The notes: generated from the letters alone by a model not told the origin. Counted from the first letter of the stretch, positions 893-29,960 are shown. The stretch: 46,016 bases of DNA from Candidatus Thorarchaeota archaeon SMTZ1-45 (GCA_001563335.1 LRSL01000061.1:1-46016); one strand, 5' to 3'. Made by a program: numbers and translations.

Positions 893-996
893 CTCATCTT
901 GGGCTGTTATACCTTTGGACTTGAGTATCCGCCGTAAAGGCAAGAGAAACAGATGTAGATTGGTGTTCTGAAAAAGGGATTATGAGTCCATTTTTC
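893..996 (+). repeat. Dispersed intergenic element, copy A (near full)
   Basis: ctcatcttgg..ctttggacttgagtatccgc..ggcaagagaaacagatgtagatt, then hairpin gaaaaagggat/gtccatttttc. Confidence 0.7.
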
Positions 997-1086
997 ATTT
1001 TCATTTGTTTGAGAAAAAAGATTCCGACTGTTCTTTGCGATACTCCTTCGATCTTATTAGATTTGGCTAAGACCCGCTCCAGCAAA

Positions 1087-1824
1087 TTATGCATCAGCTA
1101 TGATAAACGACTCAGCAATAATGTTTTCCTCTTTTACTCCCATACTCTCTAACGTATTTTTCAAATCAATCACAAAGGGATCTGGGCCACAGATGTAAAA
1201 TTTCTGATTCAGGTCCTTGACATATTTTTGAAGCAGTTCCTTACCAATTCGTCCATGTTCATAGCCTGTTGCATCCTCACGGGTGAGTGTCAGTATGAGG
1301 TCTTTGCCAAGCATGTGACGGAACTCCTTCTCAAGAATGACGTCCTTAGATTCCTTGTTCGAGAAGATTAATGTATTACCCTTTAGTTGGTTGGTTTTAT
1401 AGAGATGCCTGAGCATTGCAATGAAGGGTGTGACCCCTGCGCCTCCCGCGAGAAAGACCCCTTTTCCTTGATATTGAATAGTGCCAAAGGGCTCGTGGAC
1501 CACAACTTCATCACCAGGCTTTAGTGTGTGTAGCTGCTTCGTGAATCCATTGTGATTGGGGTAGACTTTGACTGTGAACTCAAGAACCTCATCATCATTC
1601 AGAGATGAAAACGAGAATTCCCGAAACTCATTCTCCCAATCAGGCTTGGGAATCGACAATAGGGTCGCTTGCCCAGGAATGAATTTAAAATTCTTAGGTT
1701 TCTCTAGAATAAACCGCTTCACATCGTGTGTGACGAATTCTTTCATCAGAATTCTTACTCTGTTTGGATGTTTTTTTGATGGATTTTTAATAGCCTTAGA
1801 GGTTTCATTACTCATTTTCTTCAT
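1087..1824 (-). CDS. FAD/NAD(P)H-dependent oxidoreductase (ferredoxin/flavodoxin reductase family)
   Basis: FIPGQA, REFS, GPFG-like EPFG, AGGAGVTPF and YICGPDPF motifs. Confidence 0.9.
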   Translation of the reverse strand: MKKMSNETSKAIKNPSKKHPNRVRILMKEFVTHDVKRFILEKPKNFKFIPGQATLLSIPKPDWENEFREFSFSSLNDDEVLEFTVKVYPNHNGFTKQLHTLKPGDEVVVHEPFGTIQYQGKGVFLAGGAGVTPFIAMLRHLYKTNQLKGNTLIFSNKESKDVILEKEFRHMLGKDLILTLTREDATGYEHGRIGKELLQKYVKDLNQKFYICGPDPFVIDLKNTLESMGVKEENIIAESFIIADA

Positions 1825-2063
1825 AACCGTCTTGAAATCTATGTACCAATTGAAGTTTTGGTATTATTTGTTAACTATAATTATCCAATCTAATAAAACA
1901 TAATATGTAGCATTTCTCTCTTTACTACGCTTTGCTGAAAGGTAGGATAAAGAACCGAATGCGAATCTGATTAGCGACAACGGACTTTCGTAACAATGAA
2001 AAATAGTCATGACCATTATCTTTATACTCCCCTTGAGAAGTCACAGATTAGAGGAATGACTGA

Positions 2064-2453
2064 ATGAAGGTTCGACATTGGATTGATGAAGATGTAGCAA
2101 CTTCCTCGGGAGATATTTCTATCAAAGAAGCGATCAGTATTCTCTACAAAAGGCACATTGGTTCAATCATTATTATCGACAAGGATAAGAAGTGCAAAGG
2201 CATATTCACCGAACGTGATGCCATCCGTGTCATAGCTGATGATATTCCATTGAACACGCGGCTTGCTGAGGTAATGACGACGAATCTAAAGACAATAGAT
2301 GAGCATGCTACATTCTCGATGGCAAAAGAGATTATGAGAACTCATAATATTAGACATCTGCCTGTCGTCGATGAGCAAGGACGACTCATTGGTCTTCTTA
2401 GTCTTAGAAAAATTCTAGATGAAGTACATGAGATGCACAAAATCGGTCGTTAG
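2064..2453 (+). CDS. CBS-pair domain protein
   Basis: GIFTERD and IRHLPVVD...GLLSLR CBS motifs. Confidence 0.9.
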   Translation: MKVRHWIDEDVATSSGDISIKEAISILYKRHIGSIIIIDKDKKCKGIFTERDAIRVIADDIPLNTRLAEVMTTNLKTIDEHATFSMAKEIMRTHNIRHLPVVDEQGRLIGLLSLRKILDEVHEMHKIGR

Positions 2454-2485
2454 AACCCCTTAATTTAAAACAGGAGAAAAACACA

Positions 2486-3376
2486 ATGAAGCGCTTCGAT
2501 AACAATCCAATTCTTCACCCAGTACCAGGTCACTATTGGGAGAATCGAAATGTGTTCAATGCGGGGGTCCTCCACGCTGGAAACAGAGTCCACATTCTCT
2601 ACCGTGCTCAAGGTGACGATGGAGTATCACGAATTGGGTATGCGAGTTCATCTGATGGCTACTCAATCGATACTCGGCAACCTGAACCAGTATTCATTCC
2701 AAAGAATTCCTATGAGAACCTTGGTTGCGAAGATCCACGGCTAATACAAATGGATGGAGAGTGCTTGATGACATACACTGCTTATGGAAATAATCCAAGA
2801 GCAGCATACCAAGTTTCAATCACTGAGATTTCGTTAGAGGATTTCCTTTCAAATAATTGGAACTGGGGGGATAGATTGTTGCCTTTTGAGGGAATCCTAA
2901 ACAAGAATGCTGTAATATTCCCTCGGAAAATAAATGGTTCATATGTGATGTATCACCGCATAGAGCCCGATCTGTGTGTCGCGTATTCTGACGACCTCAA
3001 GCGCTGGTGTCAATTAAAGGCATTGATGCATCCCAGACTTGGTCATTGGGACAGTCTTAAAGTCGGATCAGCAGGACCCCCAATCAAGATCAATGAAGGA
3101 TGGCTTTTCATCTATCATGGCGTGGATCATGATTATGTCTATCGTCTTGGTAATCTTCTGATTGACAAGAAAAATCCTGAGAACATTCTCTATAGATCTG
3201 AAAAACCGATATTAGAACCTCAAGAGCCCTACGAGAAATTTGGATTAGTGCCAAATGTTGTATTTAGCTGTGGTAGTGTTCTTTTAGATGACAAGCTTCT
3301 TATCTACTATGGAGGGGCTGATTCGGTAGTATGCGGGGCTGAGTTTGAACTAGGCGAACTTCTCCCGAAGGCATAG
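2486..3376 (+). CDS. GH130-family glycosidase/mannoside phosphorylase-like protein
   Basis: NPIL, VFNAG, GCEDPR, YHGV, VPNVVFSCG and YYGGAD motifs. Confidence 0.9.
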   Translation: MKRFDNNPILHPVPGHYWENRNVFNAGVLHAGNRVHILYRAQGDDGVSRIGYASSSDGYSIDTRQPEPVFIPKNSYENLGCEDPRLIQMDGECLMTYTAYGNNPRAAYQVSITEISLEDFLSNNWNWGDRLLPFEGILNKNAVIFPRKINGSYVMYHRIEPDLCVAYSDDLKRWCQLKALMHPRLGHWDSLKVGSAGPPIKINEGWLFIYHGVDHDYVYRLGNLLIDKKNPENILYRSEKPILEPQEPYEKFGLVPNVVFSCGSVLLDDKLLIYYGGADSVVCGAEFELGELLPKA

Positions 3377-3381
3377 AAAAC

Positions 3382-4446
3382 TCATCTGAGCGAATTCTGA
3401 GACTCATGCTTGCTAAGTACCTCCATCTCAAGGCGTGCCAAGAGATAAGAGAGACCAGCCTCAGCTCCCTGGTTTTGATTTAGACCACGAGCTGAGATCC
3501 CGTCATAAGTGCCGCCAGTAACGGGATTATAGACCATTACACCATTGGAGTTTTTACCCAAATACCAAGCAAATGCAGTCCATGCCATTTTGGAGTACAT
3601 TTTCTTTCCTGTCACCTGATAGGCAATGGATGCTGCTTCTACCATACATGATGCTTCTAGTGGCTGTTGATCATAGAGTGCTTTCTTGCCACCTTTTTTA
3701 TACCAAGACTGATTGCCTACTGGCTGGTAGGTGCCCTTCACGATGTCGTTTGCCGCAAGAAACTTGAGTGTCCTCTCCGCAATCCTAAGATAGTCCTTTC
3801 TTCCAGTGACCTGATATGCTCTGAAGAGTGCATGAGGAAGACGCGGATTCGCGTAAGTAATATACGGCTCAAACCATTGCCATGTAGGAGTAGATGTCTG
3901 TCTAAAGAGTTCACAGAGCCGGTCTGCAAGGTGAATCACATTTAGTTGAGGGTTCTCGTCTTCAGGGAAGGCTTTGGCATAATGGTAGAGACCGAGGATG
4001 GTGAGTGCTTGAGCCCGAGGAGAACTCGAGTCCAACGCCCAGATAAGACTCCTGTCAAAGATTTCTATTGCAGCCATTCTAACGTCCTCAGGAATTGAGG
4101 TGTCTTGAGAATAGCCGCAGGCCCAGAGTACACGTCCAATAGAGTCATCCGAGCTCTTTTCATCAAAAAAACTATGATCGTACCCGATGAGGTTGTGAAG
4201 TCGACCATCTTTCTTCTGAACATAGAGGAGAAAGCCAAGATAGGTTCTGACAAGTCCCAGATTTTTTTCCCCGTCTTGCAGTTCATGGTATCTGAGAGTA
4301 GCTAGAAGTGCACGGGCATTATCATCGGTAGTATATCCTTCTCGTCGATCGCCTATTGATGACTTTGCATGCTGGAGGATGCCAGTGTCGTCAGTCATAT
4401 CATACAGCCATGTGCAATTAATTGGAGGGAGCTCGATGGGGATCAC
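3382..4446 (-). CDS. Six-hairpin glycosidase-like domain normally fused to GT4 glycosyltransferases
   Basis: DDTGILQHA, GYTTDDNARAL, YDQQPLEA and NQNQGAE motifs. Start moved to GTG 4446 to avoid overlap (ORF track starts at 4509). Confidence 0.75.
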   Translation of the reverse strand: MIPIELPPINCTWLYDMTDDTGILQHAKSSIGDRREGYTTDDNARALLATLRYHELQDGEKNLGLVRTYLGFLLYVQKKDGRLHNLIGYDHSFFDEKSSDDSIGRVLWACGYSQDTSIPEDVRMAAIEIFDRSLIWALDSSSPRAQALTILGLYHYAKAFPEDENPQLNVIHLADRLCELFRQTSTPTWQWFEPYITYANPRLPHALFRAYQVTGRKDYLRIAERTLKFLAANDIVKGTYQPVGNQSWYKKGGKKALYDQQPLEASCMVEAASIAYQVTGKKMYSKMAWTAFAWYLGKNSNGVMVYNPVTGGTYDGISARGLNQNQGAEAGLSYLLARLEMEVLSKHESQNSLR

Positions 4447-4454
4447 TATCCTAT

Positions 4455-5618
4455 CTACTGAGCGAATTCTTTGAACAGGCCAGCATACCTTGAGGCCACG
4501 CGAGGCCACGTCATATCTTGGCCGTGTTCGTATGCAAGCTTCTCAATGTGAGCTTTCTTTTCAGGATTGTCCAAGAGTTGCCTGATACCATCGGTAATGG
4601 AATTAGGACTATTAAATTTACAGAGGATTCCTCTGCCTTCAGCCAGAAGCTCTTCGGCATAATAGAAAGGAGTGGATATGATAGGCTTTCCAGCCCCCAA
4701 TGCATAAGTGACTGTTCCACTTGAGAGCTGTTCCTTTTTTAGGTAGGGACAAATGTACACATCTGTGGCTTGTAGGTACTGCATCAATTCATCTTTGCTG
4801 AGGAAACGATTGTGGAATCGTACATTTTCTACCAGATTTAGCTTATTTATCAGTCGTACGAGACGCTTCCTGTATTTCTCGCCCTCTCCCATCCTGACTT
4901 GTGGATGAGTGACCCCAATTATCAAGTAGAGTAAGTCAGGATGCTCTTTAACGATATCTGGTAATGCTCTGATTGCATACTGAATTCCCTTGTCTTTACT
5001 TAATAGACCAAAGGTTGACAGGACAGTCCGTCCTTCCAAGCCCAGATCTTTCTTTGCTGGTTCACTTGGTACAAATGGGAAGCTAGGGCTTCCATGCGGG
5101 ATGACCTTGATTTTATCCTTGTTAACATCATAATTCTCTTGTAGGATGTGAGCAGCCATATTCGTCATGACTACGATGGCAATGCTAGCTCGCCCTATTC
5201 CGCTCACTACTCTATTGTGGGCATCCGCACTCTCTGGCGTTTGGAATATCTTAGCGTCAGGAAAAAGAGTTGTGTGCATTGTAGTGATAATAGGCTTCTC
5301 CAGCTTTTCCAAGAATGTCAAGAGATATTCACCCCAAACCCCACCGAAGAGTCCAAACTCGTGTTGCACATTTACTAAATCAAAATCTGAGCTGTTAATA
5401 TACTCAGCAGCCTTTTCATGACTCGTGATATTGTCCTCATCAATCTGCCATAATACTTCTGTTCCATAGTTATAGGATGAACCAGGGTCATTGATGGCTA
5501 TAATGGTCGATGGCTCCAGCACTTTGAGTTTGTCTATACTCTTGGTCAGGTCTTCCGTGAAGGTGGCTATTCCACACTGTCTGGGGGAATAACTGCTCAC
5601 ATATGCCACTCTTAACAT
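4455..5618 (-). CDS. GT4-family glycosyltransferase
   Basis: PRQCGIATF, QHEFGLFGG, FGLLSKDKG and SSGTVTYALGAGKPIISTP motifs. Confidence 0.9.
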   Translation of the reverse strand: MLRVAYVSSYSPRQCGIATFTEDLTKSIDKLKVLEPSTIIAINDPGSSYNYGTEVLWQIDEDNITSHEKAAEYINSSDFDLVNVQHEFGLFGGVWGEYLLTFLEKLEKPIITTMHTTLFPDAKIFQTPESADAHNRVVSGIGRASIAIVVMTNMAAHILQENYDVNKDKIKVIPHGSPSFPFVPSEPAKKDLGLEGRTVLSTFGLLSKDKGIQYAIRALPDIVKEHPDLLYLIIGVTHPQVRMGEGEKYRKRLVRLINKLNLVENVRFHNRFLSKDELMQYLQATDVYICPYLKKEQLSSGTVTYALGAGKPIISTPFYYAEELLAEGRGILCKFNSPNSITDGIRQLLDNPEKKAHIEKLAYEHGQDMTWPRVASRYAGLFKEFAQ

Positions 5619-5775
5619 AGCTAATCACATCATTAGTAGGAAAAAGGATGTTATCCAGTTGGAATAGACGGCTCTTAGGCGGAGATAAGGTTTATGAAAC
5701 AACAGTGGGAACGTGTCGTCCTTTTCGACAGGACATAGTTATCACATCAGTCTGAGTTAGGTAGTGGAGGCTTGC

Positions 5776-7134
5776 TCAAACCAGCTTCTTTGCACGCTCA
5801 ATGAGTTCAACACCTTCTTCACTGAGATGATCAGCAGTTTCTTGTGTCTTTCCCTCAGCAAAACAGCGATAGAGGGGTTCGGTACCCGACGGTCTGATGA
5901 GAATCCAGCCATCATCACGGATTATTTTCACACCATCAATTGTGATACGATTCATGTCCTTGCTTAGGTCAAGGAGTGCCCCTAAGAGGGATTCTCTCTT
6001 TTCTAGGGGTACTGGCACTTTCACTTTTGTATTGAAATATATAGGAAGCTCACTGACAAGCTGAGAGAGTGTTTTGTCTTCTAACGTAATCATTTCAACA
6101 ATTTGGGAAGCAGTCATTGCACCATCACGAACTGGTTGATGATCTGGATAAAAGACTCCGCCATTTTCCTCACCACCCAATTCTGCACCAATCTCTTCGA
6201 TTCTGTGGGAAACTACAACACTTCCAACTTCAGTCCAGTCTATCTTAGCACCAGACTTTCGAGCTACGTCTTCTATAAGACGACCGCTTGAAATAGGTGT
6301 GACTAGAGTAGAACCACGTTTCTTAGCCAAAACTCTCGAAGCAATCAATGCGAAGGATTGGTCACCCCAAAGAACCCTCCCTGCATCATCAACAAAGGTT
6401 GCTCTATCTGCATCGCCATCATGTGCAATCCCTAGATCAGCGTCCATAGCAGTCACTGCGGCTGAGAGGTCCTTGAGATTCTCAGGGATTGGCTCAGGAT
6501 TTCTTCCCGGAAAAGAGCCGTCTAACTGAGAATTTAGGGAAACAACCTTGCATCCAAGTTCTCTTAGAAGGCGAGGAGTCACTAAGCCACCTACGCTATT
6601 AGCACTATCAACAACAACTTTCAGTTGCTTTTCCTTTATTTTATCGATATCAAGGTGTGATTTGATTCCCTCTAAATATACATCAATTGCAGTTGAATAG
6701 TGTGTGACTTCACCAATTTTATTCCATTCAGCTGTCTTGGACTGATTTGAGTGGTAGGAAATTTCAATCAGATTTTCAATTTCTCTAGTTACTTCGATTC
6801 CATTTGATCCAATCACTTTGATCCCATTGAACTGAGGCGGGTTGTGTGATGCTGTAACCATGACTCCAGCACTACATCCTAGTCTGGGAGTCATATATTG
6901 CAGTGTCGGAGTTGGTGCAGGACCAAGATTGACAACTGAGCAGCCTGTTGAAATCAGCCCAGACATCAATACATGTGTGAACATTTCACCGCCCATTCGC
7001 GAGTCCCGCGCGATGGCAATTTTGCCAGGCCCTAGCACAGCACCTATAGCACGACTCAGCTTGAGAACTAATTCAACGGTCAAGTCCTTGTTAATTATGC
7101 CGCGGACACCGTTTGTGCCAAACATTCTAGTCAA
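5776..7134 (-). CDS. glmM: Phosphoglucosamine mutase / phosphomannomutase (alpha-D-phosphohexomutase)
   Basis: FGTNGVRG, TASHNP, DGDADR, GGEENGG and RPSGTEP motifs; substrate specificity is not certain. Confidence 0.85.
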   Translation of the reverse strand: MTRMFGTNGVRGIINKDLTVELVLKLSRAIGAVLGPGKIAIARDSRMGGEMFTHVLMSGLISTGCSVVNLGPAPTPTLQYMTPRLGCSAGVMVTASHNPPQFNGIKVIGSNGIEVTREIENLIEISYHSNQSKTAEWNKIGEVTHYSTAIDVYLEGIKSHLDIDKIKEKQLKVVVDSANSVGGLVTPRLLRELGCKVVSLNSQLDGSFPGRNPEPIPENLKDLSAAVTAMDADLGIAHDGDADRATFVDDAGRVLWGDQSFALIASRVLAKKRGSTLVTPISSGRLIEDVARKSGAKIDWTEVGSVVVSHRIEEIGAELGGEENGGVFYPDHQPVRDGAMTASQIVEMITLEDKTLSQLVSELPIYFNTKVKVPVPLEKRESLLGALLDLSKDMNRITIDGVKIIRDDGWILIRPSGTEPLYRCFAEGKTQETADHLSEEGVELIERAKKLV

Positions 7135-7295
7135 AATAAAATCACTAAAGTAATTGAGAGCCTATTTTATCTTAAGAGTTATCTTAGCGGATTATTTAGT
7201 GGTATTTTTGATTATCTGACACATATGGAAACAACCGTGTTGGATAGAAATCAACGTATGTTTGCAATTGCATTTGACAATCCATCTAATTGGCG

Positions 7296-9341
7296 TCACC
7301 ATTGGATGTCTACCCAGTAGGCTGGATGGTCTGACTGTGGATCAGTAATATATTGACAGTCTGAAACAATTGTACCTGATGAAAGGAAGATGTGGTCAAT
7401 TCTCTGGCTATTATTCTCCCCTAGACTGTTCACCCCCGTAGGCCACTTGACCCACCACGAGTCTTCAAGTACAGATGTTGTGAGGTTGTATGGTTCGCTT
7501 TTTGGTCTAAAATTGAAGTCGCCCATGAAAATAACGTTGCTTTTCCCACTGGACATTTCAAGAACATCATTCTGTAGTGTCATCTTGGTTGAAATCCTTC
7601 CGTAAGTGTGAGTCACATATACCGTGTATGTTATCGATCCAATGGAGATCTCAGCCTCGATTGTGGCTGTTTGTTTCTGGTCGATATCCTCACTATAATG
7701 ATAGATAGTTCTAGGATTTTCAATAGGATATTTTGATAGTAATGCAACCCCTGTTGTCCCTGTGACTCCTTTTGGTCCAAAGTATGAATAGAGGTTCAAC
7801 TTGTCAGCGAAGTACCTCACAACATCACAGTTACCTGCAATTTTGCTCGTTTCTTGGAGTCCGATGATGTCCGCATCGATTTCTCTAAGGAGCTCCAACT
7901 GCCCATCATAGTTCTTGATCTGAGCATCACTCACTCCTTGTTGAAGATTGTAAGTTAAGATTCTCGCAGAAACAGCAGTGCCCGTGGGTTCGACTGGACG
8001 AGCATCGAGTGCTATTGAACTCACAAGAGTCCCAAGGAACATGAATATCAAAACTCCTGCGATGATAGTCACTTTTCTAGGAGGTTTGGTTTGATAATTG
8101 AGAGATGGTATAGAGCTCTTCATGAAGTAAACAGTTACGAAGAGCACCAAACCTGCAATGAGAAAGATGAACCAGAATAAGTCTCTTAGCAAGGGACCAA
8201 TAACAGGAACAAATCCCCAGACAGATGTGAGTATAAGTGTGAATAACAGAACAAGAATATACAATCCACCACCCAGCGTGAACGCGATGCCTGTTGCTCG
8301 CGAGGTTGGTACCAACTCAAGACTTGTCAGTCTGTGAGATAGAAGTATTAAATCAATCAGTATGATTGGGAATGTGGCTATCATGAGGTATAGCAGCAAT
8401 TCGTTCAGAAGAGTTGTTGGAGGTGCTACGATGGGATAGGCTGAGGGGACATCTGGGAATGGAATTTGATTAACATAGATCATCAAGACGAACAGAGTCA
8501 CGAACAGAAGATTCCAAATCCAGATTATTCTAGGAGTTAATTTTGAAAAGACGTGTGGACGACATAGCATAACAACTGCAAATAAGGTCGTCATCAGAGA
8601 AACTCCAGAAACAACAGATATATAGCTGCTTTCAGTCCACCTAGAAATAACTCCTGGGCTACTAAATGCGAAGCTAACAAAGAAGAGAATGCTTGTCAAC
8701 CCAAAGGTGATACCGGTTAGATATCTCTTGCGCACTGGTTTTGAGGTACTTGGTGTTTCATCGATGCTAGTTTGAGATTTTACTGATGCTACACCCTGCA
8801 AGCTCTTTGAAAAACCAACAAGCATGAAGACACCTATCGCAGCCAATACCCATCCAATCGCTTGACCCCACCCATATGTAGAGAAATCGATGGTGAAGTT
8901 TAGGGTCCTTAAAAAGACAGATGTTACTAGAGCTACAGCCAATGCGATACCAAATGTGAATGCCCTCTGATTCTTGTCCCCAGACCGCACTAACAGCAAC
9001 AGAGCAGGAAACAGAATGAAGAAACAGCCAACACCAAGTCCTGAAAGGATCATTCTTGCTGTAGTTTCAAAGAGCGGCTCAGCTACTCTGCTGACAATCA
9101 TGATTCCTCCGGCAGCAATCACCAATTTCTCTGGAATGTACCTCTTAAAGATGATGAGGATGATTGGCGAGAAAAGGAACAACAAGACCAAGGTGTTCTC
9201 GTTGAGTGACAATGTCATAAGTAGGAGAATGTAGGTGGATTCTACATAGTCAGAGAAAAGCTGGAGGAAGATTAGCAACATTATACTAATGAAAATGAGT
9301 TCAGAATAGTATTCTTCAAAGAGCTTGGCGTTTATTGGCAT
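7296..9341 (-). CDS. Polytopic membrane protein with C-terminal EEP (endonuclease/exonuclease/phosphatase) domain, CWH43-like architecture
   Basis: Many TM helices, then TYNL, IIGLQE, GDFN, IDHIF and SDH motifs. Confidence 0.85.
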   Translation of the reverse strand: MPINAKLFEEYYSELIFISIMLLIFLQLFSDYVESTYILLLMTLSLNENTLVLLFLFSPIILIIFKRYIPEKLVIAAGGIMIVSRVAEPLFETTARMILSGLGVGCFFILFPALLLLVRSGDKNQRAFTFGIALAVALVTSVFLRTLNFTIDFSTYGWGQAIGWVLAAIGVFMLVGFSKSLQGVASVKSQTSIDETPSTSKPVRKRYLTGITFGLTSILFFVSFAFSSPGVISRWTESSYISVVSGVSLMTTLFAVVMLCRPHVFSKLTPRIIWIWNLLFVTLFVLMIYVNQIPFPDVPSAYPIVAPPTTLLNELLLYLMIATFPIILIDLILLSHRLTSLELVPTSRATGIAFTLGGGLYILVLLFTLILTSVWGFVPVIGPLLRDLFWFIFLIAGLVLFVTVYFMKSSIPSLNYQTKPPRKVTIIAGVLIFMFLGTLVSSIALDARPVEPTGTAVSARILTYNLQQGVSDAQIKNYDGQLELLREIDADIIGLQETSKIAGNCDVVRYFADKLNLYSYFGPKGVTGTTGVALLSKYPIENPRTIYHYSEDIDQKQTATIEAEISIGSITYTVYVTHTYGRISTKMTLQNDVLEMSSGKSNVIFMGDFNFRPKSEPYNLTTSVLEDSWWVKWPTGVNSLGENNSQRIDHIFLSSGTIVSDCQYITDPQSDHPAYWVDIQW

Positions 9342-9402
9342 GAAAGAGGATATACTCCACCTATCTAAAATGTGTGTCTATAGAAGAAGGGATGATATTC
9401 TC

Positions 9403-9518
9403 ATCGTCATAGCCAAAGATGTTTTCGGACCGGACTATCTGCGTTATAGGCAAGAAAAGCGGATGTAGTTTCAGCTAATAAATCGAGAGGGGCTTCCTCT
9501 CTCCTCACTCTTTCTCTC
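9403..9518 (+). repeat. Dispersed intergenic element, copy B (full, reference copy)
   Basis: atcgtcatagccaaagatgttttcggaccggactatctgcgttataggcaagaaaagcggatgtagtttcagctaataaatcgagaggggcttcctctctcctcactctttctctc. Confidence 0.85.
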
Positions 9519-10084: not shown

Positions 10085-10148
10085 TCAGAAACACAATATA
10101 TGACAATAGTAGTTGGTAAGACATCATCAGTTGTCTAAATCAGAGTAG

Positions 10149-10183
10149 ATTATCATAGCCTGAGAGATTTTTGGACCTGACTT
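10149..10183 (+). repeat. Dispersed element, copy C (left part)
   Basis: attatcatagcctgagagatttttggacctgactt aligns gap-free to copies B and D. Confidence 0.75.
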
Positions 10184-10309
10184 TACAATGCCATTCAGAT
10201 CAACCTGAGGGGCTGATTAAGATTTTCATTAATTGAGTCTATTTTACTTAGAAGAAGGGAATTATATTCAGAGTATCAGTAAGCTCAGTAAGAGTGGGTG
10301 ATATGACTC

Positions 10310-10813: not shown

Positions 10814-10888
10814 TCTGAAATAACATCAGCTACTTCGATAGCTGGATGACATATTGATTTGCAGATACTCAAGTAGAGTCACTAAAAG

Positions 10889-11003
10889 ATCATCATAGCA
10901 CGAGGAATTTTCAGACCTGAATATCTACAGCGTTAACAAGAGGAATAAATGTAGTTTCGAAGTTTAATCTGAGAGAGGGGCGTCCTCTATTCCTTATTCT
11001 TTC
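10889..11003 (+). repeat. Dispersed element, copy D (full)
   Basis: atcatcatagcacgaggaattttcagacctgaatatctac..caagaggaataaatgtagtttc..gagagaggggcgtcctctattccttattctttc. Confidence 0.85.
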
Positions 11004-11086: not shown

Positions 11087-11641
11087 CTATTCAGGAAGGA
11101 ACTTACGTACAAATGGAGAGGTTTCACCTCTACGCATGAAATGTCCAGAAGGTCCCTCTCCAAGGAACTCTGAGAACCAAGACTCATGTTCCACCTCTTC
11201 ATGGAGGATGGCTTGTGATAATGCATAAGTCCGATGGTCTTTTCCTGCAGTCATGTTGCATATCTCAGAATAACCTCTTACCGCACAACGCTCAGCAGCT
11301 ACAAGCACTTTTAGAATTGCTTGAACATCCGTTGGATCCTTAGGGAGTTTGGCCGGGGGACATGCGGAAATGTTATGGAAATCGACCATATTCTCTGGGA
11401 GTTTGCCACCAAGCTCATAGATACGCGGTACCAACGCTTCGAAGTGGTTTCGATCTTCGATACGGGCAGCTTCAGCAATCTCCTTGATACCTTCACCCTC
11501 AAGTCCAATAAGGTTAGCTCGAAGAATTGTATAGTAGTAGTAAGTTGTTAACTCAGCAGCTGCATTTTTGACAAGAAGTTCAAGAAGCTTGTCAACATCA
11601 ATGCCTGCCTTCTCAACCATTTCTCTAGCAACTCGTGCCAT
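11087..11641 (-). CDS. dps: DpsL (archaeal DPS-like, thioferritin-type) protein
   Basis: AAELTTYYYY, IEDRNHFE, ISACPP, AERCAV (the two thioferritin Cys) and EEVEHE motifs. Confidence 0.92.
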   Translation of the reverse strand: MARVAREMVEKAGIDVDKLLELLVKNAAAELTTYYYYTILRANLIGLEGEGIKEIAEAARIEDRNHFEALVPRIYELGGKLPENMVDFHNISACPPAKLPKDPTDVQAILKVLVAAERCAVRGYSEICNMTAGKDHRTYALSQAILHEEVEHESWFSEFLGEGPSGHFMRRGETSPFVRKFLPE

Positions 11642-11670
11642 TATTAAATCACCTTAATTCTAAATAAAAG

Positions 11671-11690
11671 TAACTTCTATATAAAAGTTA
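11671..11690. promoter_or_regulatory. Palindromic operator overlapping TATA elements of divergent dps/fur
   Basis: TAACTTcTATATAaAAGTTA is a near-perfect palindrome in the 89-bp divergent gap. Confidence 0.6.
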
Positions 11691-11730
11691 TCTCAGATAG
11701 ATTTTTATTACTCCCTACAGGTTTTGAACT

Positions 11731-12117
11731 ATGGAAGAACGTCTGAGAGAGTCGGGCCTCAGGATCACTCCACAACGTCTTGAGCTGCTAAGAGTACTTG
11801 AGAAACACGGGAAGGACCATCCTTCATTCTCACAGGTATATGAAGCAGTCAGAACCAGACTTCAGAGTGTTAGTCAGTCCACAGTCCTGAAGAACATGGC
11901 CACATTTGAGGACATGGGAATTGTCCGCAGCTTTTCGTTCAGGGGCGAAACACATTATGAACTTAATCCCAAGCCACATGTGAATCTCATAGACGCGACG
12001 GGGAAGATAGTGGACATCGAAGGTGGGGAGATAAAGAAAGTACTCAATGAACTCATTGACACAATAAAGAGAGAAGCGGGTATTGAAACAAAGACTCTTC
12101 TTGTTATGGTTGAGTAA
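11731..12117 (+). CDS. Fur/PerR-family transcriptional regulator
   Basis: LRESGLRITPQR, HPS, SQSTV.KN..F...G.V motifs; divergent from dps. Confidence 0.88.
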   Translation: MEERLRESGLRITPQRLELLRVLEKHGKDHPSFSQVYEAVRTRLQSVSQSTVLKNMATFEDMGIVRSFSFRGETHYELNPKPHVNLIDATGKIVDIEGGEIKKVLNELIDTIKREAGIETKTLLVMVE

Positions 12118-12167
12118 TGTTTGACTATGCTCATAATAGAATGAGTAATGGTATTATTATCTTTAGA

Positions 12168-12207
12168 ATCGTCATGGTACGGAAAATCTTCGGACCAGAC
12201 TATCTGC
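12168..12207 (+). repeat. Dispersed element, copy E (left part)
   Basis: atcgtcatggtacggaaaatcttcggaccagactatctgc. Confidence 0.85.
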
Positions 12208-13826: not shown

Positions 13827-13846
13827 GAAGTATGGTTGTAATGATC

Positions 13847-14770: not shown

Positions 14771-14820
14771 AAATCACTCCCTGTTTCAAGTATGATTCCT
14801 ACAATATGAATCTGCTGAAG

Positions 14821-21578: not shown

Positions 21579-21626
21579 CACAAGAGATTTTCATACTGAA
21601 CTATCTCCTATACAAGCAAGAGGAAT
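21579..21626 (+). repeat. Dispersed element, copy J (partial)
   Basis: cacaagagattttcatactgaactatctcctatacaagcaagaggaat is closest to copy D. Confidence 0.7.
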
Positions 21627-22057: not shown

Positions 22058-22065
22058 GGTATTAT

Positions 22066-22122
22066 TTTTTCATTACACTGGAGATTTTTAAACTAGAGAA
22101 TTGGAAAGAGGGCTTCCTTTTC
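22066..22122 (+). repeat. Dispersed element, copy K (internally deleted: left part joined to terminal hairpin)
   Basis: tttttcattacactggagatttttaaactaga...gaaagagggcttccttttc. Confidence 0.65.
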
Positions 22123-22173
22123 GCACCCTAAAATCTTAAAGTAGAGGAATACCAAGTGTAAGAGAATCATTGA

Positions 22174-23532
22174 ATGGTAGGAAAAAAAACGCCCATAGGA
22201 CGTGATAGTGTGAGTGAACAGAAATCGAAGATTCTAGAGAGAGTAAAGAAAGAAGAGATCAGCTTCATTGACCTAATGTTTTCAGATCTATCTGGTCAAC
22301 TGAAATGCGTGACCATTTCGCCAAGAGAATTGGAAAATTGCTTAGAAGATGGCAAATGGTTTGACGGATCGTCTGTAGAGGGGTTCACCAGAATCCATGA
22401 GAGCGACATGTTGTTGATTCCTGATTCAACGACCTATATCATGTTGCCTTGGCCGCGACATGGAAAAAACGCAGCGAGAATCATTTGTGATGTCTTTGAA
22501 CCTAATAAAATACCATATGAGGGTGCTCCTCGAAACATTTTGCGACGTATTTCTGAAACGAGTGAAGCAAAGGGATGGTTTTACAAGGTTGGACCTGAAA
22601 TCGAGTTCTTCCTTTTTGGATCAAAAGAAGAAGGGGATTATTATGATAGGGCGAGCTACTTCGATTTCTCACCAAGAGACCTAGGTATCGATATTCGGGC
22701 AGTCATCGTTTCTACGTTGGAAGGTCTGGGTATTCAAGTAGGAATGACACATCATGAGTGTGGACCCAGCCAACATGAGATTGATATTGAATACAGTAAT
22801 GTCTTGACTAGTGCAGATAACATCATGGTTGCAAAGCAGGCGATTAAGACAGTCGCTAGTAACATAGACCTTTATGCCTCTTTCATGCCAAAGCCCAGAA
22901 CCGGTGTGGCAGGTAGTGGAATGCATACACATCAATCCATATTTAACAACAATAGAAAGAACCTCTTTCATGACGATGATGATCCATATCAACTCTCCAC
23001 TCTAGCATACCATTTCATGGGCGGTCAGCTCGAGTATATCAGAGAGATGTCTGCCATCCTCTGCCCAACAGTCAATAGCTATAAACGGTTAGGTGGGTTT
23101 GAGGCACCGGTCTATATTTGTTGGGGACAACGAAATCGGTCAGCCTTAATCCGAGTCCCAAGGTACGGTAAGAATCGACAAGAATCTGCAAGACTGGAAC
23201 TTCGATGTCCAGATCCAAGCTGCAATCCTTACATTACATTTGCAGTTATGCTGGCAGCAGGAATGAAAGGTATAGATAAAAAGATAGAACCTCCAGAACC
23301 AGTAGAAGAAGATGTCTTTGACTTCGATGATGCTAAACTTGCGCAGTTTTATATAAAATCCATGCCCTCCGATCTTGGTGAAGCCCTTGATGAGTTTGAG
23401 CAGAGTAAGTTCATCAAGGACTGCTTAGGGGAGCAGGCTTTTAACAAGTATTTAGGGCTTAAACGAGCAGAATGGTCGGAGTTCAAGCGGAGTGTGACTG
23501 ACTGGGAAAGAATGTACTATATAGACTTGTGA
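22174..23532 (+). CDS. glnA: Type I glutamine synthetase
   Basis: FDGSS, GPEIEFF, HHE..PSQHEID, FMPKP, GSGMHTHQS, NSYKRL, NRSALIRVP and ELRCPD motifs. Confidence 0.95.
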   Translation: MVGKKTPIGRDSVSEQKSKILERVKKEEISFIDLMFSDLSGQLKCVTISPRELENCLEDGKWFDGSSVEGFTRIHESDMLLIPDSTTYIMLPWPRHGKNAARIICDVFEPNKIPYEGAPRNILRRISETSEAKGWFYKVGPEIEFFLFGSKEEGDYYDRASYFDFSPRDLGIDIRAVIVSTLEGLGIQVGMTHHECGPSQHEIDIEYSNVLTSADNIMVAKQAIKTVASNIDLYASFMPKPRTGVAGSGMHTHQSIFNNNRKNLFHDDDDPYQLSTLAYHFMGGQLEYIREMSAILCPTVNSYKRLGGFEAPVYICWGQRNRSALIRVPRYGKNRQESARLELRCPDPSCNPYITFAVMLAAGMKGIDKKIEPPEPVEEDVFDFDDAKLAQFYIKSMPSDLGEALDEFEQSKFIKDCLGEQAFNKYLGLKRAEWSEFKRSVTDWERMYYIDL

Positions 23533-23580
23533 ATAAATATGAAGAACACATTCTTAATGAACTTTGATAGCTGCTTTGAG

Positions 23581-23620
23581 ATTGTCATTGAGGGGGAGAT
23601 ATCCAGACAAGATTACCTAT
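23581..23620 (+). repeat. Dispersed element, copy M (left part, ends at convergent stop codon)
   Basis: attgtcattgagggggagatatccagacaagattacctat aligns gap-free to copy D at about 60% by eye. Confidence 0.6.
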
Positions 23621-27439: not shown

Positions 27440-27451
27440 ACTAATTTGGAA

Positions 27452-28096
27452 CTACGTAGAAGACTGCAACATATGAGCAGCCGTCCGGTTCATTGCAATC
27501 CCTGCAACGATGAAACAGATGGAGAAGACAATCAATGTGAGATATCCAAGAAGCATTATGTCCGAAATGAGTAGAAGCGGAAACGAAATTAGACAAAGAG
27601 AAATTCCTAGATAGAAGAGGACACTGACTTTTCCATGTGAACCAACTGCTCTGAGAATTGCAAATGTAATCAAACATGATGCGCCAGCAGCCCAGAGAAG
27701 AGAGATTAGGCGTAGTGACTCAGGAAGCAGTCCAGTCAAAGTAAACGCAAGAAACCACACAATTCCAATCAAAGCCCCATGTTTGGCATCTGTGGTTTCT
27801 TCCTTAGATTTACTTTCTACTGTCTTCCAAGATTCAAAGAAGGAATATGCTATAAAACCAAAACACAGAAGCAAGGTCATCACATTTGCGAAAATAGAGA
27901 TGAGTTCTGTATCGAGTCCGATTATGCCAGCGACAAGGACTGCGTTCATACTGACTACAACGCCAAGGGGGAGCACAATTCCTAGAAATATCAGTACTCG
28001 ACCCCAAATCTTTCTGAAGAGATACTCTTCATATCGTTCAACAACGCTCAGAGCTTGTAGTACCTTATCAAATTCCTCCATAAGAGATCCCACCAT
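27452..28096 (-). CDS. Hypothetical 6-TM membrane protein
   Basis: Hydrophobic helices, co-oriented with the wHTH gene. Confidence 0.75.
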   Translation of the reverse strand: MVGSLMEEFDKVLQALSVVERYEEYLFRKIWGRVLIFLGIVLPLGVVVSMNAVLVAGIIGLDTELISIFANVMTLLLCFGFIAYSFFESWKTVESKSKEETTDAKHGALIGIVWFLAFTLTGLLPESLRLISLLWAAGASCLITFAILRAVGSHGKVSVLFYLGISLCLISFPLLLISDIMLLGYLTLIVFSICFIVAGIAMNRTAAHMLQSST

Positions 28097-28188
28097 TCTA
28101 TGGAGTATGAGCAGACATTAAATGATAGTCTGTTCTGCAATACAGAACTCATCCACTCCTTAAGTAGAATTGTATCTTTACTATACAC

Positions 28189-29139
28189 ATGAAAACTACT
28201 ACGATTGTATTGGAAGCTCGAGAAATATCGAAGAGCTATAATGGGAATAAAGTGCTAGACAACCTTAGCTTAGATATCAGATCATCTGACTTCTTTGTTT
28301 TGATGGGACCTAATGGCTCGGGAAAGAGTACTCTCCTGTCCATCTTGGCAGGAACAAACTCGTTTGATAGTGGGAGTATCAGGATTCTTGGACACGATAT
28401 TTGTAATAGTAGTCTGGAAGCGAGAAAGCACATCGGGTATGTTCCTCAGGAGAATTTCTGTTCAGACTTTCTTACTGGTAGGGAGAACCTTCAGTACTTC
28501 GCGGATCTGCTTGGACTCTCCAAGGCGCAAGCGAGAGAGGAGATTGAGCTGCTTGTACAGATGATGGATCTAGAGGAGGCTATAGACAGGCGTGTTGCAG
28601 AATATAGTGGAGGGATGAAGAAGAAACTAGAGGTCGCAACAGCGTTGTTGGGTGAGCCAGAAATCCTCTTCCTTGACGAACCGACGACAGGTCTCGATCC
28701 AACTGTGAGAAAGGACTTTCTCACTCTTCTTCGAGAGATTAACGAACAGGGGACTGCAGTCCTCCTTGTCACACACATCGGTGAAGACGCAGAGATGGCT
28801 TCTCGTGTTGGTTTCATGATTCAAGGCGAGATCGTCGCGGAGGGTGAACCTGATGAATTAAAGGAGATGAGTGGACTGAAAGGCTCGATCATCGTGGATG
28901 CGGCTCCAAGATCTGACGAACTCATGTTGCTCCTAGCAAGTCTCAGTGATGATTGTATGGTCATTGAAAGGGAGGAGTTGCTAGAGCTCATTTGTAAAGA
29001 CACAAAGAGAATGATTCCAAAGATTGTGGACATGCTCTACAAGTCCGGCTTTCACATGCACCGAGTTGATACAAGACCACCAAGTCTTGAAGATGTCTTC
29101 TACACGTTAACTGAATGTCCCATCCGAGGTGAGGTGTGA
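28189..29139 (+). CDS. ABC-2 exporter ATP-binding protein
   Basis: GPNGSGKS, YSGGM, LFLDEPT and SLEDVF motifs. Confidence 0.95.
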   Translation: MKTTTIVLEAREISKSYNGNKVLDNLSLDIRSSDFFVLMGPNGSGKSTLLSILAGTNSFDSGSIRILGHDICNSSLEARKHIGYVPQENFCSDFLTGRENLQYFADLLGLSKAQAREEIELLVQMMDLEEAIDRRVAEYSGGMKKKLEVATALLGEPEILFLDEPTTGLDPTVRKDFLTLLREINEQGTAVLLVTHIGEDAEMASRVGFMIQGEIVAEGEPDELKEMSGLKGSIIVDAAPRSDELMLLLASLSDDCMVIEREELLELICKDTKRMIPKIVDMLYKSGFHMHRVDTRPPSLEDVFYTLTECPIRGEV

Positions 29140-29915
29140 TGAGTAGAGTAAGTCAAGTCCGTGCATCATTTGTACGTTCAATGAGAATCTTTCTCAGAGA
29201 CAAGGCCATTGTTGGGTCCTCAATCTTGGTTCCAGTGTTTTTCCTTGTTGTACTACCATTAGTGATCTTCCAGAATGTGCCCGTGGAATTCATGCCAGCT
29301 TTGAGAGGCTTTCTTGCGATTGCCATGGTGACACTTCTGATTATGACTGTAGCAATGAGTAACCTCCCAGGGTCTATAGCTGCAGATAGAGATCATGACC
29401 TATATTCCAAACTCTCCTCCATGCCAGTCAATCCTTTGTATGAATGCTTGGGAAGAATCGTGACTGTATTTGTCTTCTCAGCGATTGGTAGTCTTGCCAT
29501 CATAATGATTGGTTTGGCGCTTGGAGCTGAGCTGATTATCACATCCTTAGATTTGCCACTTGTTGTTGGGGCAGCCTCTGGCATCGTACTCTTTTCAGCT
29601 GGTCTTGGATTGATAATTGCAAGTGTGGTAAAAAGCGAGTCAGCGGCAGCTCATATTGGGGTAGCTATTGTCTTGGTCAACTACTTCATTGGTATAGCAT
29701 TCCCATATGGTGATTTGCCTGATTTACTCAAACCAATGGTGCATGTAAACCCAGTATGCATAGGCAATAATATGATTGCAGTTCGCACAGTGGGAGAGGA
29801 GTTCGTAGGATATAATCCATTCAACTTCATGGATATCACAGTAATGCTTGTCTTGACCATTCTCTTATTCACAATTGGATTGTACATTTATTCACGATAC
29901 TGCTGGAGGAGGTAG
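29136..29915 (+). CDS. ABC-2 exporter permease
   Basis: Six TM helices, GTGA overlap with the ATPase gene. Confidence 0.88.
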   Translation: MMSRVSQVRASFVRSMRIFLRDKAIVGSSILVPVFFLVVLPLVIFQNVPVEFMPALRGFLAIAMVTLLIMTVAMSNLPGSIAADRDHDLYSKLSSMPVNPLYECLGRIVTVFVFSAIGSLAIIMIGLALGAELIITSLDLPLVVGAASGIVLFSAGLGLIIASVVKSESAAAHIGVAIVLVNYFIGIAFPYGDLPDLLKPMVHVNPVCIGNNMIAVRTVGEEFVGYNPFNFMDITVMLVLTILLFTIGLYIYSRYCWRR

Positions 29916-29960
29916 ATTCGCTATTGAGAGAGGATCTTCCTCTCTCCCTCATTATTTCTT
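29911..29960 (+). repeat. Dispersed element, copy L (right part; could act as terminator)
   Basis: ggtagattc..GAGAGAGGA-tct-TCCTCTCTC-cctcattattt; its GTAG supplies the permease stop. Confidence 0.7.

Follow-up and report, generated by a model that had tools for sequence, protein, structure and literature searches.

The repeated element that divides this region of a Thorarchaeota genome into gene cassettes reproduces, in about 127 bp, the 3'-terminal part of an acyl-CoA dehydrogenase (ACAD) gene; the source gene lies on contig C113 of the same genome. We give roughly equal credence for and against the view that the window, by which we mean the whole stretch of 46,016 bases analysed here, represents the distal, decaying portion of a single long integron-like cassette array whose anchor is the 3' end of this Thorarchaeota gene, with cassettes recombining between copies of the element through a catalyst that is sequence-specific or supplied in trans.

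Structure and origin of the element

The element consists of the last 21 codons of ACAD, the stop codon, a hairpin and a T-tract. Its left arm comprises 16 codons with the consensus peptide IVMAREIFGPDYLPYR. The core of 18-22 nt, CAAGAGAAACAGATGTAG usually followed by TTTC, encodes QEKQM and the stop codon. The right arm runs from a short spacer through an 8-bp G/A-rich hairpin to a T-rich tract. The original prediction treated the element as anonymous, but its conserved part proved to be coding sequence, namely the tail of the ACAD gene on another contig. That is, the first copy on C113 terminates a 414-aa ORF with the domains Acyl-CoA_dh_N, _M and _1, and this intact gene heads an array in which all downstream copies have the same direction. 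The same gene with the same tail and a hairpin was found in 26 relatives (26 ACAD-attached copies), and the array copies use the same codons.

In the 127 array copies that are unattached to the gene, the variability by codon position was 0.096, 0.073 and 0.294, a coding-like pattern, and one position shows all six arginine codons. The 21-codon frame and its stop are kept in 91 of these copies and an ATG at codon 3 in 101, and the frames upstream of the copies are closed. Third codon positions had a variability of 0.142 within the core against 0.384 within the left arm, and the conservation of the core is partly a selection effect because the copies were picked by their HMM score. The ACAD-attached core of this genome itself has 4 of its 18 bases different from the array consensus, and a match to the core did not predict the presence of an array (p=0.125).

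Pairwise identity within and between genomes was 73% for the left arm and 82% for the core. The right arm is the least alike part, with 64% identity in 594 random pairs. Perfectly identical stretches between copies are about 20 nt long, and no homogenisation of the copies within one genome was seen in the alignments. An uninterrupted stem of at least 6 bp occurs in 103 of 166 copies; these stems comprise 38 distinct sequences, and the mean z is -2.5. Folded as DNA, one consensus-like copy formed several small stems on either strand, and its single 8-bp hairpin fell in the right arm only. The hairpin and T-tract resemble a transcription stop signal, and at a junction they would be expected to halt + strand transcription between cassettes.

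Copies and cassettes in the window and in related genomes

A profile of 127 positions (r3.hmm), built from copies of this genome and its relatives, was searched over the window by nhmmer with filters off. There were 11 matches of 13.2-83.1 bits. The features of the window are as follows.

893..994, +: first element copy in the window, with left arm, core and part of the right arm (50.9 bits, HMM 13-117)
1087..9341, no strand assigned: cassette DNA with genes for an FNR-like oxidoreductase, CBS, GH130, epimerase-like, GT1 and phosphoglucomutase (PGM) proteins and an EEP nuclease (Pfam)
9402..9513, +: full copy by alignment, with left arm, core, hairpin and T-rich tract (83.1 bits, HMM 12-125)
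10143..10184, +: remnant copy, only left arm (23.6 bits, HMM 7-48)
10882..11002, +: full copy (69.4 bits, HMM 6-126)
11087..12117, no strand assigned: cassette with a ferritin/Dps-like gene (-) and fur (+) (Pfam)
12163..12207, +: remnant copy, only left arm (33.5 bits, HMM 8-52)
13735..13826, +: copy without the first part of the left arm (48.4 bits, HMM 26-126)
13828..14808, -: single-gene cassette of 981 bp, with a 307-aa ORF without Pfam family (cluster 8)
14813..14930, +: full copy (68.8 bits, HMM 5-123)
15916..15946, +: weak remnant of the left arm (14.4 bits)
21580..21624, +: weak remnant from the left arm to the start of the core (15.3 bits)
22070..22127, +: possible decayed junction upstream of glnA (-0.1 and 2.0 bits, noise level)
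22174..23532, +: glnA cassette gene (Pfam Gln-synt_C and Gln-synt_N; cluster 4)
23578..23619, +: weak remnant of the left arm, downstream of glnA (13.2 bits)
29912..29957, +: last detectable remnant, only the hairpin and T-tract part (19.0 bits, HMM 75-126)

Fourteen sites had been claimed from the sequence. Eleven of them stand, because the best score in 20 block-shuffled windows, which set the noise level, was only 7.4 bits; the other three, at 19850 (2.9 bits), 20636 (no match) and 22066 (-0.1 and 2.0 bits), do not rise above noise. The claim that every copy lies on the + strand holds for 11 of 11 matches, and Pfam agrees with the gene calls for SnoaL, ferritin/Dps and Fur, radical-SAM and TetR, class II aldolase, GlnA and the EEP nuclease.

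The copies of the window are worn. Five of the 11 (10143, 12163, 15916, 21580 and 23578) keep only left-arm sequence, no copy was found by the HMM from the remnant at 29912..29957 to position 46016, and the mean score was 40.0 bits in the window against 91.8 bits on the ACAD contig. Within 1087..9341, no copy was detectable between the PGM and EEP nuclease genes; 2046-7146 corresponds to a 5.2-kb cassette with copies at both ends in L063, and 7296-9471 to a cassette with bounding copies in L053. Likewise, the side of the glnA cassette that matches 22070..22127 has an intact copy in L047, L053, L057 and L069. The glnA cassette measures 1423-1541 bp in four other genomes, where its neighbours differ, and the cassette at 13828..14808 is 982 bp long in L053 and L059, with copies on both sides and other neighbours. 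In L038, a homologue of the ferritin/Dps-fur cassette sits downstream of the ACAD gene at a distance of about 5 kb.

The source genome is a Thorarchaeota MAG that is 87.7% complete. It contains 39 matches (E<=0.01), 36 of which lie on five contigs (C61 10, C113 10, C12 8, C116 5 and C65 3) that total 99,402 of 3,544,182 bases, or 2.8% of the assembly. The orientation of the copies is uniform on each contig. Thus the clustering and strand bias that the original prediction proposed to look for were both found. The remaining three matches (C57 and C89) are weak, at 16.0-20.1 bits. Of the 86 genomes of the host's family, 72 have the same arrays, although these relatives are kin and counts across them are not independent. 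The arrays also occur on 74 metagenome contigs, where all 46 multi-copy ones are co-oriented. Across 83 sequences we counted 275 matches on the + strand and 6 on the - strand, 5 of which scored only 11-13 bits, and 53 of 54 multi-copy loci were co-oriented. One complete chromosome has a single locus with 5 copies, and the copy number in one genome reaches 32-38. No copies were found on viral contigs, plasmids or phages, and Rfam gave no match at the gathering score on either strand of the 46,016 bases, as the exclusion of a known RNA family had called for.

The DNA between two copies is a discrete unit that mostly consists of a single gene, which may face either way. The 157 non-redundant internal cassettes had a median size of 1192 bp, and 85 of them have one ORF; the start-to-start spacing of copies had a median of 1332 bp (n=185). 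The ORFs of at least 70 aa in these cassettes number 109 on the + strand and 124 on the - strand, with both orientations in 24 cassettes, and since the genes point both ways they presumably have promoters of their own. When 311 inter-copy segments were compared, we obtained 29 shared clusters, in which lengths are kept (1423/1423/1441, 981/982/982, 912/912 and 553/553), the neighbours differ, and the order varies among genomes. Small cassettes therefore recur at identical length in different contexts, which indicates that the small units themselves move. The other 196 of 225 cassette clusters are singletons. A homologue elsewhere was found for 1 of 13 first-position cassettes, compared with 64 of the 182 remaining ones (Fisher p=0.064), in line with fresher cassettes close to the gene. 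Neither an excised circle nor a clean skip joint was observed.

Site of exchange and candidate catalysts

Comparison of junctions between genomes suggests that exchange maps to the core of 18-22 nt over the stop codon, and not to a single fixed base. The right arm goes with the cassette that follows it on the right, and the core is where homology changes over. Among 15 pairs of homologous cassettes, right arms showed greater similarity at the upstream end than at the downstream end in 13 of 14 comparable pairs, and for left arms the greater similarity lay at the downstream end in 13 of 15. An independent comparison of all pairs found a right-arm identity of 76.2% where the downstream flank was homologous (20 pairs) against a background of 62.8%, and in the comparison of the L047 and L069 junctions the switch fell exactly at the core. 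The left arm variously follows the left cassette, the right cassette or neither. For example, cluster 24 has a body identity of 99% and a downstream left-arm identity of 73%, the left arm of the L047 junction matches neither parent, and 13 pairs that were homologous only upstream showed a left-arm identity of 73.6% against a background of 72.7%. There was no sharp breakpoint peak among truncated copies. The switch of homology falls within the element, though not at the fixed base for which the original check had asked. Taken together with the clustering, the common orientation and the mobile cassettes of constant length, this switch supports the proposal of a non-classical cassette-accretion system in which the copies serve as sites of recombination or insertion.

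We propose that cassettes leave and enter when two copies recombine, the exchange taking place at the core or immediately to its left. Exchange at this position would mean that insertion at the gene-proximal copy keeps the ACAD reading frame and terminator intact. This copy would be the insertion point, and older cassettes would be shifted outward to where junctions decay, as in the window.

The predicted recombinase outside the window did not appear. Searches with PF00589, PF00239, PF01797, PF01548, PF01867 and PF00665 gave no matches in the source genome, and the whole of this 88%-complete assembly yielded no tyrosine, serine, Y1-HUH, IS110, Cas1 or rve enzyme. A six-frame search with PF00589 was likewise negative in G000 (the source), G001, G013, G041 (the complete chromosome) and G042; the control search was positive in 14 of 14 named genomes. 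In the family, 29 of 86 genomes have PF00589 and 23 of 86 have PF00239, against 72 of 86 for the element. These matches lie on contigs other than those of the arrays, except for one about 20 kb from copies on G102:C51. No copy adjoins the tyrosine recombinase gene in 16 loci, and when 1.23 Mb of array DNA was searched by tblastn with 21 ORFs of 8 integrase loci, the matches were to beta-helix proteins alone, with no recombinase-type homologue. On our reading, the likeliest catalyst would be a sequence-specific recombinase or nuclease that belongs to a family outside those searched, or one that acts in trans from an element not binned with the genomes.

Because no recombinase was found in the genome, exchange by general homologous recombination remains a live rival and is the chief one, though we consider it rather unlikely. 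It accepts the same anatomy and array but has no dedicated enzyme. That is, the left arm and core, a block of about 70 bp, would be the substrate for RadA, and unequal crossing-over, looping-out of circles and Campbell-type re-insertion would let cassettes be gained, lost and reordered, either inside one cell or once relatives have exchanged DNA. Crossovers could fall anywhere in the block, so that left arms would swap with the functional ACAD tail and be filtered by selection on the protein. This would easily explain the coding-like variation of the 127 array copies, and it fits the variable exchange points, the mosaic left arms and the lack of any recombinase that co-occurs with arrays; the right arm, least alike between copies, would then always stay with its cassette. 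However, arms of 73% and cores of 82% identity with perfect stretches of about 20 nt are a poor substrate, and the copies inside one genome are not homogenised. Furthermore, homology alone does not predict the much stronger conservation of synonymous sites in the core than in the arm, and it offers no route by which new genes gain a copy, even though singletons make up 196 of 225 cassette clusters.

It is improbable that the array is what remains of whole mobile elements (proviruses, plasmids or tycheposon-like islands) that integrated serially at the ACAD 3' end, each bringing a replacement gene tail and since losing its integrase and most genes. Site-specific integration of such elements, in tandem, at the 3' end of a tRNA or protein gene has precedents. 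SCCmec integrates at rlmH. Thaumarchaeal integrated elements occupy 3'-distal parts of protein genes (PMC6563490), SGI1 integrates at trmE (PMC8409611) and tycheposon islands of Prochlorococcus integrate in tandem at 3' ends (10.1101/2020.12.28.424599), so that, in the parts of these sources available to us, 3'-distal integration and tandem re-use of a site are documented in both archaea and bacteria (PMC6563490; 10.1101/2020.12.28.424599). As in those elements, the repeat is a partial 3' end of the target gene, an intact gene stands at one end, newcomers displace older units outward and old junctions decay. The family also has sporadic tyrosine recombinases of 386-398 aa, including the one near copies on G102:C51. 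In contrast, those elements measure kb to tens of kb and have an integrase of their own now or had one recently, whereas the array units have a median of 1.2 kb (n=157; 1192 bp, 85 with one ORF) and none shows a recombinase. Array DNA contains no detected recombinase gene or fragment, small cassettes of identical length stand in different contexts, and viral contigs, plasmids and phages are without copies. Archaeal att sites span 13-69 bp in the available part of PMC6563490, against about 127 bp here, and the copy number in the arrays reaches 32-38 per genome.

It is very improbable that the copies are a dispersed functional module (a terminator or insulator, or a small peptide or RNA gene) spread by duplication with an incidental cassette pattern, since, for all the terminator-like hairpin and T-tract, the open frame in 91 and the codon-3 ATG in 101 of the 127 array copies, they keep to one locus and one orientation whatever the gene direction (109 + and 124 - ORFs), homology between genomes switches inside them, their upstream frames are closed and no Rfam family matches.

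Comparison with repeats and integrons, and biological meaning

Like MITEs and REP-like repeats, the element is a short, non-autonomous intergenic repeat with a hairpin. Those repeats are dispersed in either orientation, whereas the element is confined (36 of 39 matches on 2.8% of the genome), has one orientation per locus and derives from the coding end of a resident gene. No terminal inverted repeats were seen by eye.

The array also resembles integrons and CALINs (attC clusters without integrase). These, including the archaeal ones of Ghaly et al. 2022 (PMC9668308), likewise form one chromosomal locus with a long array of co-oriented sites of about 60-140 bp, which part mostly single-gene cassettes of about 1 kb whose order and content vary between relatives. 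Each cassette begins with one part of a site and ends with the remainder, new cassettes probably enter at the head of the array, and the integrase is usually not nearby. However, the original prediction was right that the attC ends are lacking: the pair of RYYYAAC and GTTRRRY core sites occurs in none of 112 full-length copies (+/-20 nt, either strand; 0-3 in shuffled sets). The site is a coding-gene tail with a terminator-like hairpin and, judging from the one copy folded, probably not an imperfect palindrome over its whole length, and the array is anchored on the ACAD 3' end and not on attI beside intI. Integron cassettes are mostly promoterless, one-way and read from a common promoter, whereas the cassette genes here face either way (109 + and 124 -). 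An IntI-type tyrosine recombinase is absent from the source genome and from 57 of 86 family genomes.

Our literature searches found no description of such a system, although the Asgard CALINs of Ghaly et al. 2022 (PMC9668308), as far as the available part of that work goes, might include these arrays. We think it possible, with somewhat less confidence than in our reading of the window, that this whole family of Asgard archaea (Thorarchaeota) runs a native gene-capture platform, an integron in function that was built independently. The stop-codon region of ACAD, a housekeeping gene, would be the docking site, the copies of its tail would be the cassette sites, and the catalyst would be an unrecognised recombinase family or the cell's own homologous recombination. 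If this is true, the platform moves surface proteins and ordinary metabolic genes, among them glnA, dps/fur and sugar-nucleotide operons, between lineages.

The repeat as a copied gene tail

A repeat search of the window revealed direct repeats of 31-48 nt, belonging to several families, at the sites of the original prediction, which had described the element of a candidate integron-like cassette system at 14 positions between 893 and 29960. A nucleotide HMM was built from the best copies and iterated over the whole source assembly (3.54 Mb in 119 contigs, 42% G+C, 87.7% complete). With the filters off, 11 of the 14 sites were recovered at 13-83 bits, all on the + strand (no match in 20 shuffled windows exceeded 7.4 bits), and the remaining three, at 19850, 20636 and 22066, were at noise level. 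At E<=0.01 the genome gave 39 matches, of which 36 were on five contigs: 10 on C61 (the window being this entire contig), 10 on C113, 8 on C12, 5 on C116 and 3 on C65. The other three (on C57 and C89) were weak, at 16.0-20.1 bits. The five contigs amount to 99,402 bases, that is, 2.8% of the genome, and all copies in any one of them share their orientation, so that the scan bore out the predicted strand bias and clustering. It was also correct that the element lacks attC ends, since its copies were negative in the integron core-site test. The search for known elements gave no Rfam match in the window at the gathering score, and no match of one copy to plasmid and phage collections by blastn.

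In the alignment of the element, the variation lies mostly at each third base. The conserved part reads in frame as IVMAREIFGPDYLPYRQEKQM, then a stop; 3' of the stop are about 12 variable bases, an 8-bp G/A-rich hairpin and a T-rich tract. The frame upstream was closed within 0-71 codons at all copies except the first copy on C113, where a 414-aa ORF (C113:8786-10030) that carries all three acyl-CoA dehydrogenase (ACAD) domains truly ends. The C-terminal domain model stops at residue 400 of this ORF. Because the frame is open upstream solely at this ORF, the element corresponds to the last 21 codons of the gene, the stop and the downstream hairpin. That is, these results show that the repeat is a copy of the ACAD gene tail. 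Relatives of the ACAD protein in genome contigs were from Candidatus Thorarchaeota (Asgard group).

We divided the element into a left arm (codons 1-16), a core (18-22 nt around the stop; CAAGAGAAACAGATGTAG, mostly then TTTC) and a right arm (the rest). In 127 copies not attached to the gene, the variability at the three codon positions was 0.096, 0.073 and 0.294, an excess at the third position that was reached in 0 of 10,000 permutations, and the whole frame and the stop were in place in 91 of them. All six synonymous codons of the arginine were present, both in array copies and in 26 gene-attached copies. The coding-like variation of unattached copies therefore indicates that the arms come from ACAD tails that functioned in many lineages, or that they pass through the functional position.

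The third-position variability of array copies was 0.142 in the core versus 0.384 in the arm, and that of gene-attached copies was 0.346 versus 0.497. The low value in the core hints at a constraint on the DNA itself, and is partly a selection effect because the copies were picked by score. No significant link was found between core mismatches of the ACAD-attached copy and the presence of an array (p=0.125), and an uncounted comparison by eye of a 5-bp inverted repeat around the core (ATCTG/CAGAT) gave no apparent compensation between copies. In 103 of 166 copies the hairpin stem ran for 6 bp or more without interruption; 38 different inner stems occurred, and the hairpin was also present behind ACAD genes without an array. 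It is kept as a structure, not as a sequence.

A single co-oriented array

With one copy as the blastn query, matches were obtained in 23 of the 24 other genomes in the genus, and in none of 16 genomes representing 13 further families in the phylum. A covariance model of the element matched 72 of 86 family genomes, spread over 15 of 16 genera and including 22 of 23 high-quality genomes, with 1 to 32 matches per genome; the number of cassettes, the stretches between consecutive copies, reached 32-38 per genome. We left out G078, a genome in one record with 77% completeness and copies scattered in both directions, which we suspect to be a joined scaffold. In several high-quality genomes (G047, G049, G053, G055 and G057) the only copy was the gene-attached one. 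A complete chromosome (G041, the same as G054) had five copies in one 5-kb locus and in one direction, with no intact ACAD gene upstream, and a 669-kb contig had five copies in one locus beginning at the ACAD gene.

In 83 sequences, consisting of five contigs of the source genome and 78 loci, 275 matches were on the + strand and 6 on the - strand, five of the latter scoring 11-13 bits. Because the loci had been oriented by the match itself, the tally within loci is the fair count, and 53 of 54 multi-copy loci were uniform in orientation. In an independent scan of metagenome contigs in stored orientation, we found 175 copies on 74 contigs, and all 46 contigs with at least two copies were uniform. 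These results show that the copies form a single co-oriented array. The sole strong reverse-orientation copy among the 281 matches was at 5084-5180 of L082, one of the 78 loci (83.5 bits).

The mean score of the copies was 91.8 bits on the ACAD contig versus 40.0 bits in the window, where the copies fade from 9.4 kb to 29.9 kb and none lies beyond. Of the cassettes immediately following the gene, 1 of 13 had a homologue elsewhere, versus 64 of 182 of the others (p=0.064). Both observations fit a scheme in which new cassettes would enter at the ACAD gene and older ones would age outward. When ACAD loci that appear empty (L018, L024 and L038) were compared with the far end of the window, there was no conserved far flank, and the neighbourhood was variable on both sides.

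Cassettes and the point of exchange

All sequences were cut at the copies, and the resulting 311 segments were clustered by blastn into 196 singletons and 29 clusters with at least two members. The glnA cassette was 1423, 1423, 1441 and 1541 bp long, and the cassette of cluster 8, which includes window 13828-14808, was 981, 982 and 982 bp; further shared cassettes measured 912/912, 553/553, 1200/1202 and 1814/1815 bp. The glnA cassette was flanked by clusters 20 and 21 in L047 and by clusters 5 and 3 in L053, and it followed cluster 2 in L069. Clusters 13, 14, 15 and 16 were adjoining in L066, and separated and reordered in L069. These results show discrete cassettes reshuffled among lineages, in agreement with the predicted cassette-accretion system: shared cassettes keep their length and their neighbours differ across genomes.

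The 157 non-redundant internal cassettes ranged from 208 to 6791 bp in length, with a median of 1192 bp. Counting ORFs of 70 aa or longer, 85 cassettes had one, 30 had two, 21 had three or more and 21 had none; 109 of the ORFs were on the + strand and 124 on the - strand. Cassette genes are ordinary or accessory ones and encode NosD/beta-helix and beta-propeller surface proteins, alcohol dehydrogenase, nucleotidyltransferase, beta-lactamase-fold proteins, TetR and PadR regulators, radical-SAM enzymes, Dps plus Fur, GlnA and a five-gene sugar operon. The most recurrent type (cluster 2) carries NosD/beta-helix surface-protein genes (L003:1544-3217, L004:3709-5808, L005:326-2017, L083 about 6333-9044, and others). 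At the upstream end of such cassettes in C116, C65 and the complete chromosome, a conserved stretch of about 25 nt lies directly 5' of the element. The following features were observed in the window.

16310-19842: one cassette-like block encoding a TetR regulator and two radical-SAM enzymes, one with SPASM and one B12-binding; perhaps a unit for peptide modification
22174-23532: glnA (glutamine synthetase), usually a core gene, here a cassette bounded by intact copies and with different neighbours in L047, L053, L057 and L069
25755-27074 and 30948-32219: beta-lactamase-fold (PF00144) paralogues, several of which lie in and beside the array, as at L005:7346-8569 and 8775-9920
44622-44818 and 45335-45531: a 197-nt direct repeat (71% identity) within two adjoining ORFs (44319-44942 and 45071-45658) that look like tandem paralogues

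We compared, segment by segment, the identity of 15 pairs of internal cassettes that are homologous between genomes. Of 14 comparable pairs, 13 had a right arm that was more alike upstream of the cassette than downstream (means 72% versus 44%), and one was a tie. For the left arm, it was the downstream copy that was more alike than the upstream copy in 13 of 15 pairs; the other two were a tie and a reversal. Cluster 24 gave the closest pair, with bodies 97-99% identical; here the identity rose sharply along the upstream copy, being 69% in its left arm, 95% in its core and 100% in its right arm. Cassettes 20 and 4 adjoin in L047 and have three cassettes between them in L069; the L047 junction matches the flank of cassette 20 in L069 up to the element, and the flank of cassette 4 from the core onward.

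An all-against-all test was performed with 139 full copies, leaving out 26 gene-attached ones. The right-arm identity was 76.2% when only the downstream flank was homologous (20 pairs) versus a background of 62.8%. Against a background of 72.7%, the left-arm identity was 73.6% in the 13 pairs with homology in the upstream flank alone, and 77.5% where the downstream flank alone was homologous; this shows that neither side holds the left arm firmly. In cluster 24 and in the L047 junction it matches neither partner. From the arm comparisons, a cassette in line therefore consists of the right arm, the genes and then, loosely, the left arm. These results show that exchange takes place within the element. 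As to whether breakpoints fall at a fixed base, the homology does switch at the core; the left arm is also exchanged independently, and the truncated copies (92 right-truncated and 54 left-truncated, of 412 matches) had broad breakpoint modes and no sharp cut site.

Among short Logan contigs from four sequencing runs (X1-X4), none skipped a cassette at two copies in window 7000-26000, low-cover parts in X2-X4 being discounted. In contig pieces of X1, the core end of the 14813 copy (14890) was joined back to the hairpin of the 9402 copy (9485) with 5 or 9 other letters between. The joint may reflect one more copy, a different arrangement or the junction of a circle, and we conclude nothing from it. 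An exact 16-nt core match lies near 19024 of C49 in the source genome (L231 about 1525-1542, - strand), in an unrelated unannotated ORF, where it encodes ...TQEKQMS...; it could be a chance match or a potential secondary site.

A putative catalyst and known systems

The original prediction placed a recombinase outside the window. Six-frame Pfam searches of the source genome (87.7% complete) gave no tyrosine recombinase, resolvase, Y1 transposase, IS110 transposase, Cas1 or rve integrase, and no recombinase was found among the gene contents of the cassettes. PF00589 was also absent from the complete chromosome and, in all, from 57 of 86 family genomes, and these archaea therefore seem to be without a Pfam-recognisable XerA-type enzyme. 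Tyrosine recombinases were present in 29 of the 86 genomes and resolvases in 23, and many array-rich genomes (G004, G013, G062, G085 and the source genome) had neither. The expected proximity to a recombinase was likewise not observed, as no copy lay beside a tyrosine recombinase gene in 16 fetched loci; a 12.8-bit match near such a gene in L097 was rejected as not element-like.

Five TnpB-like (PF07282) genes of the source genome (C15:25279-25512, C15:36864-37055, C36:2438-2671, C34:21779-21982 and C69:134465-134632) stand without a Y1 or serine transposase partner in the genome. We rejected them as the enzyme: they are on other contigs, and the DNA within 3 kb of them shares no 14-mer with any copy. 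A 24-nt degenerate pattern gave 0 matches in viral contigs. An 18-nt core pattern gave 36 loci there, which were rejected as chance matches since the HMM aligned the seeded core alone in all of them; no copies were thus found on viral contigs.

The enzyme is inferred, and we give an even chance to a sequence-specific recombinase or nuclease whose kind is unrecognised or was not binned. This candidate is favoured because the core is frozen, the cassette pool is open and very diverse, and half-copies are many; the half-copies look like scars of off-site events. The main rival is general homologous recombination over the 70-bp shared block. It accounts for the missing enzyme, for the wandering left arm and for the coding signature, and we consider it possible, if less likely.

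The textbook device for storing and reshuffling single genes is the integron, which IntI and attC define. The present array resembles an integron or CALIN array in function, but it was negative in those tests of the defining features that were run, namely IntI, the attC core site and cassettes running one way. It is also similar to tandem integration at the 3' end of a gene, as in tycheposons (preprint 10.1101/2020.12.28.424599) and thaumarchaeal elements (PMC6563490), 14 of 68 of the latter being integrated in 3'-distal parts of protein genes; in contrast to these, no integrases are borne by the units of the present array, which are smaller by an order of magnitude. Decayed whole integrative elements fit the array poorly, and we regard them as improbable. 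A module that does not recombine likewise fits poorly, and is hardly credible. Ghaly et al. (PMC9668308) report Asgard CALINs with canonical attC structure. In the literature searched on integrons, cassettes and integration sites of Thorarchaeota and Asgard archaea, we found no account of the present system; the supplementary MAG lists of PMC9668308 might include these genomes.

The arrays represent an integron-like genome architecture in an Asgard family, in 15 of 16 sampled genera, made of different parts and without a recognised recombinase. Asgard archaea are the archaeal group closest to eukaryotes. If the movement of cassettes is confirmed, it would offer a concrete and testable way to account for the high gene flux that has been reported for the pangenomes of Asgard archaea, and it would mean that cassette arrays can evolve convergently from the 3' end of a gene. 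There would then be a new recombinase to find, or else short gene-derived repeats and general recombination would suffice. It would also be of consequence for work on MAGs: the repeats break assemblies (five contigs here), and genes in the array such as glnA may vary between strains.
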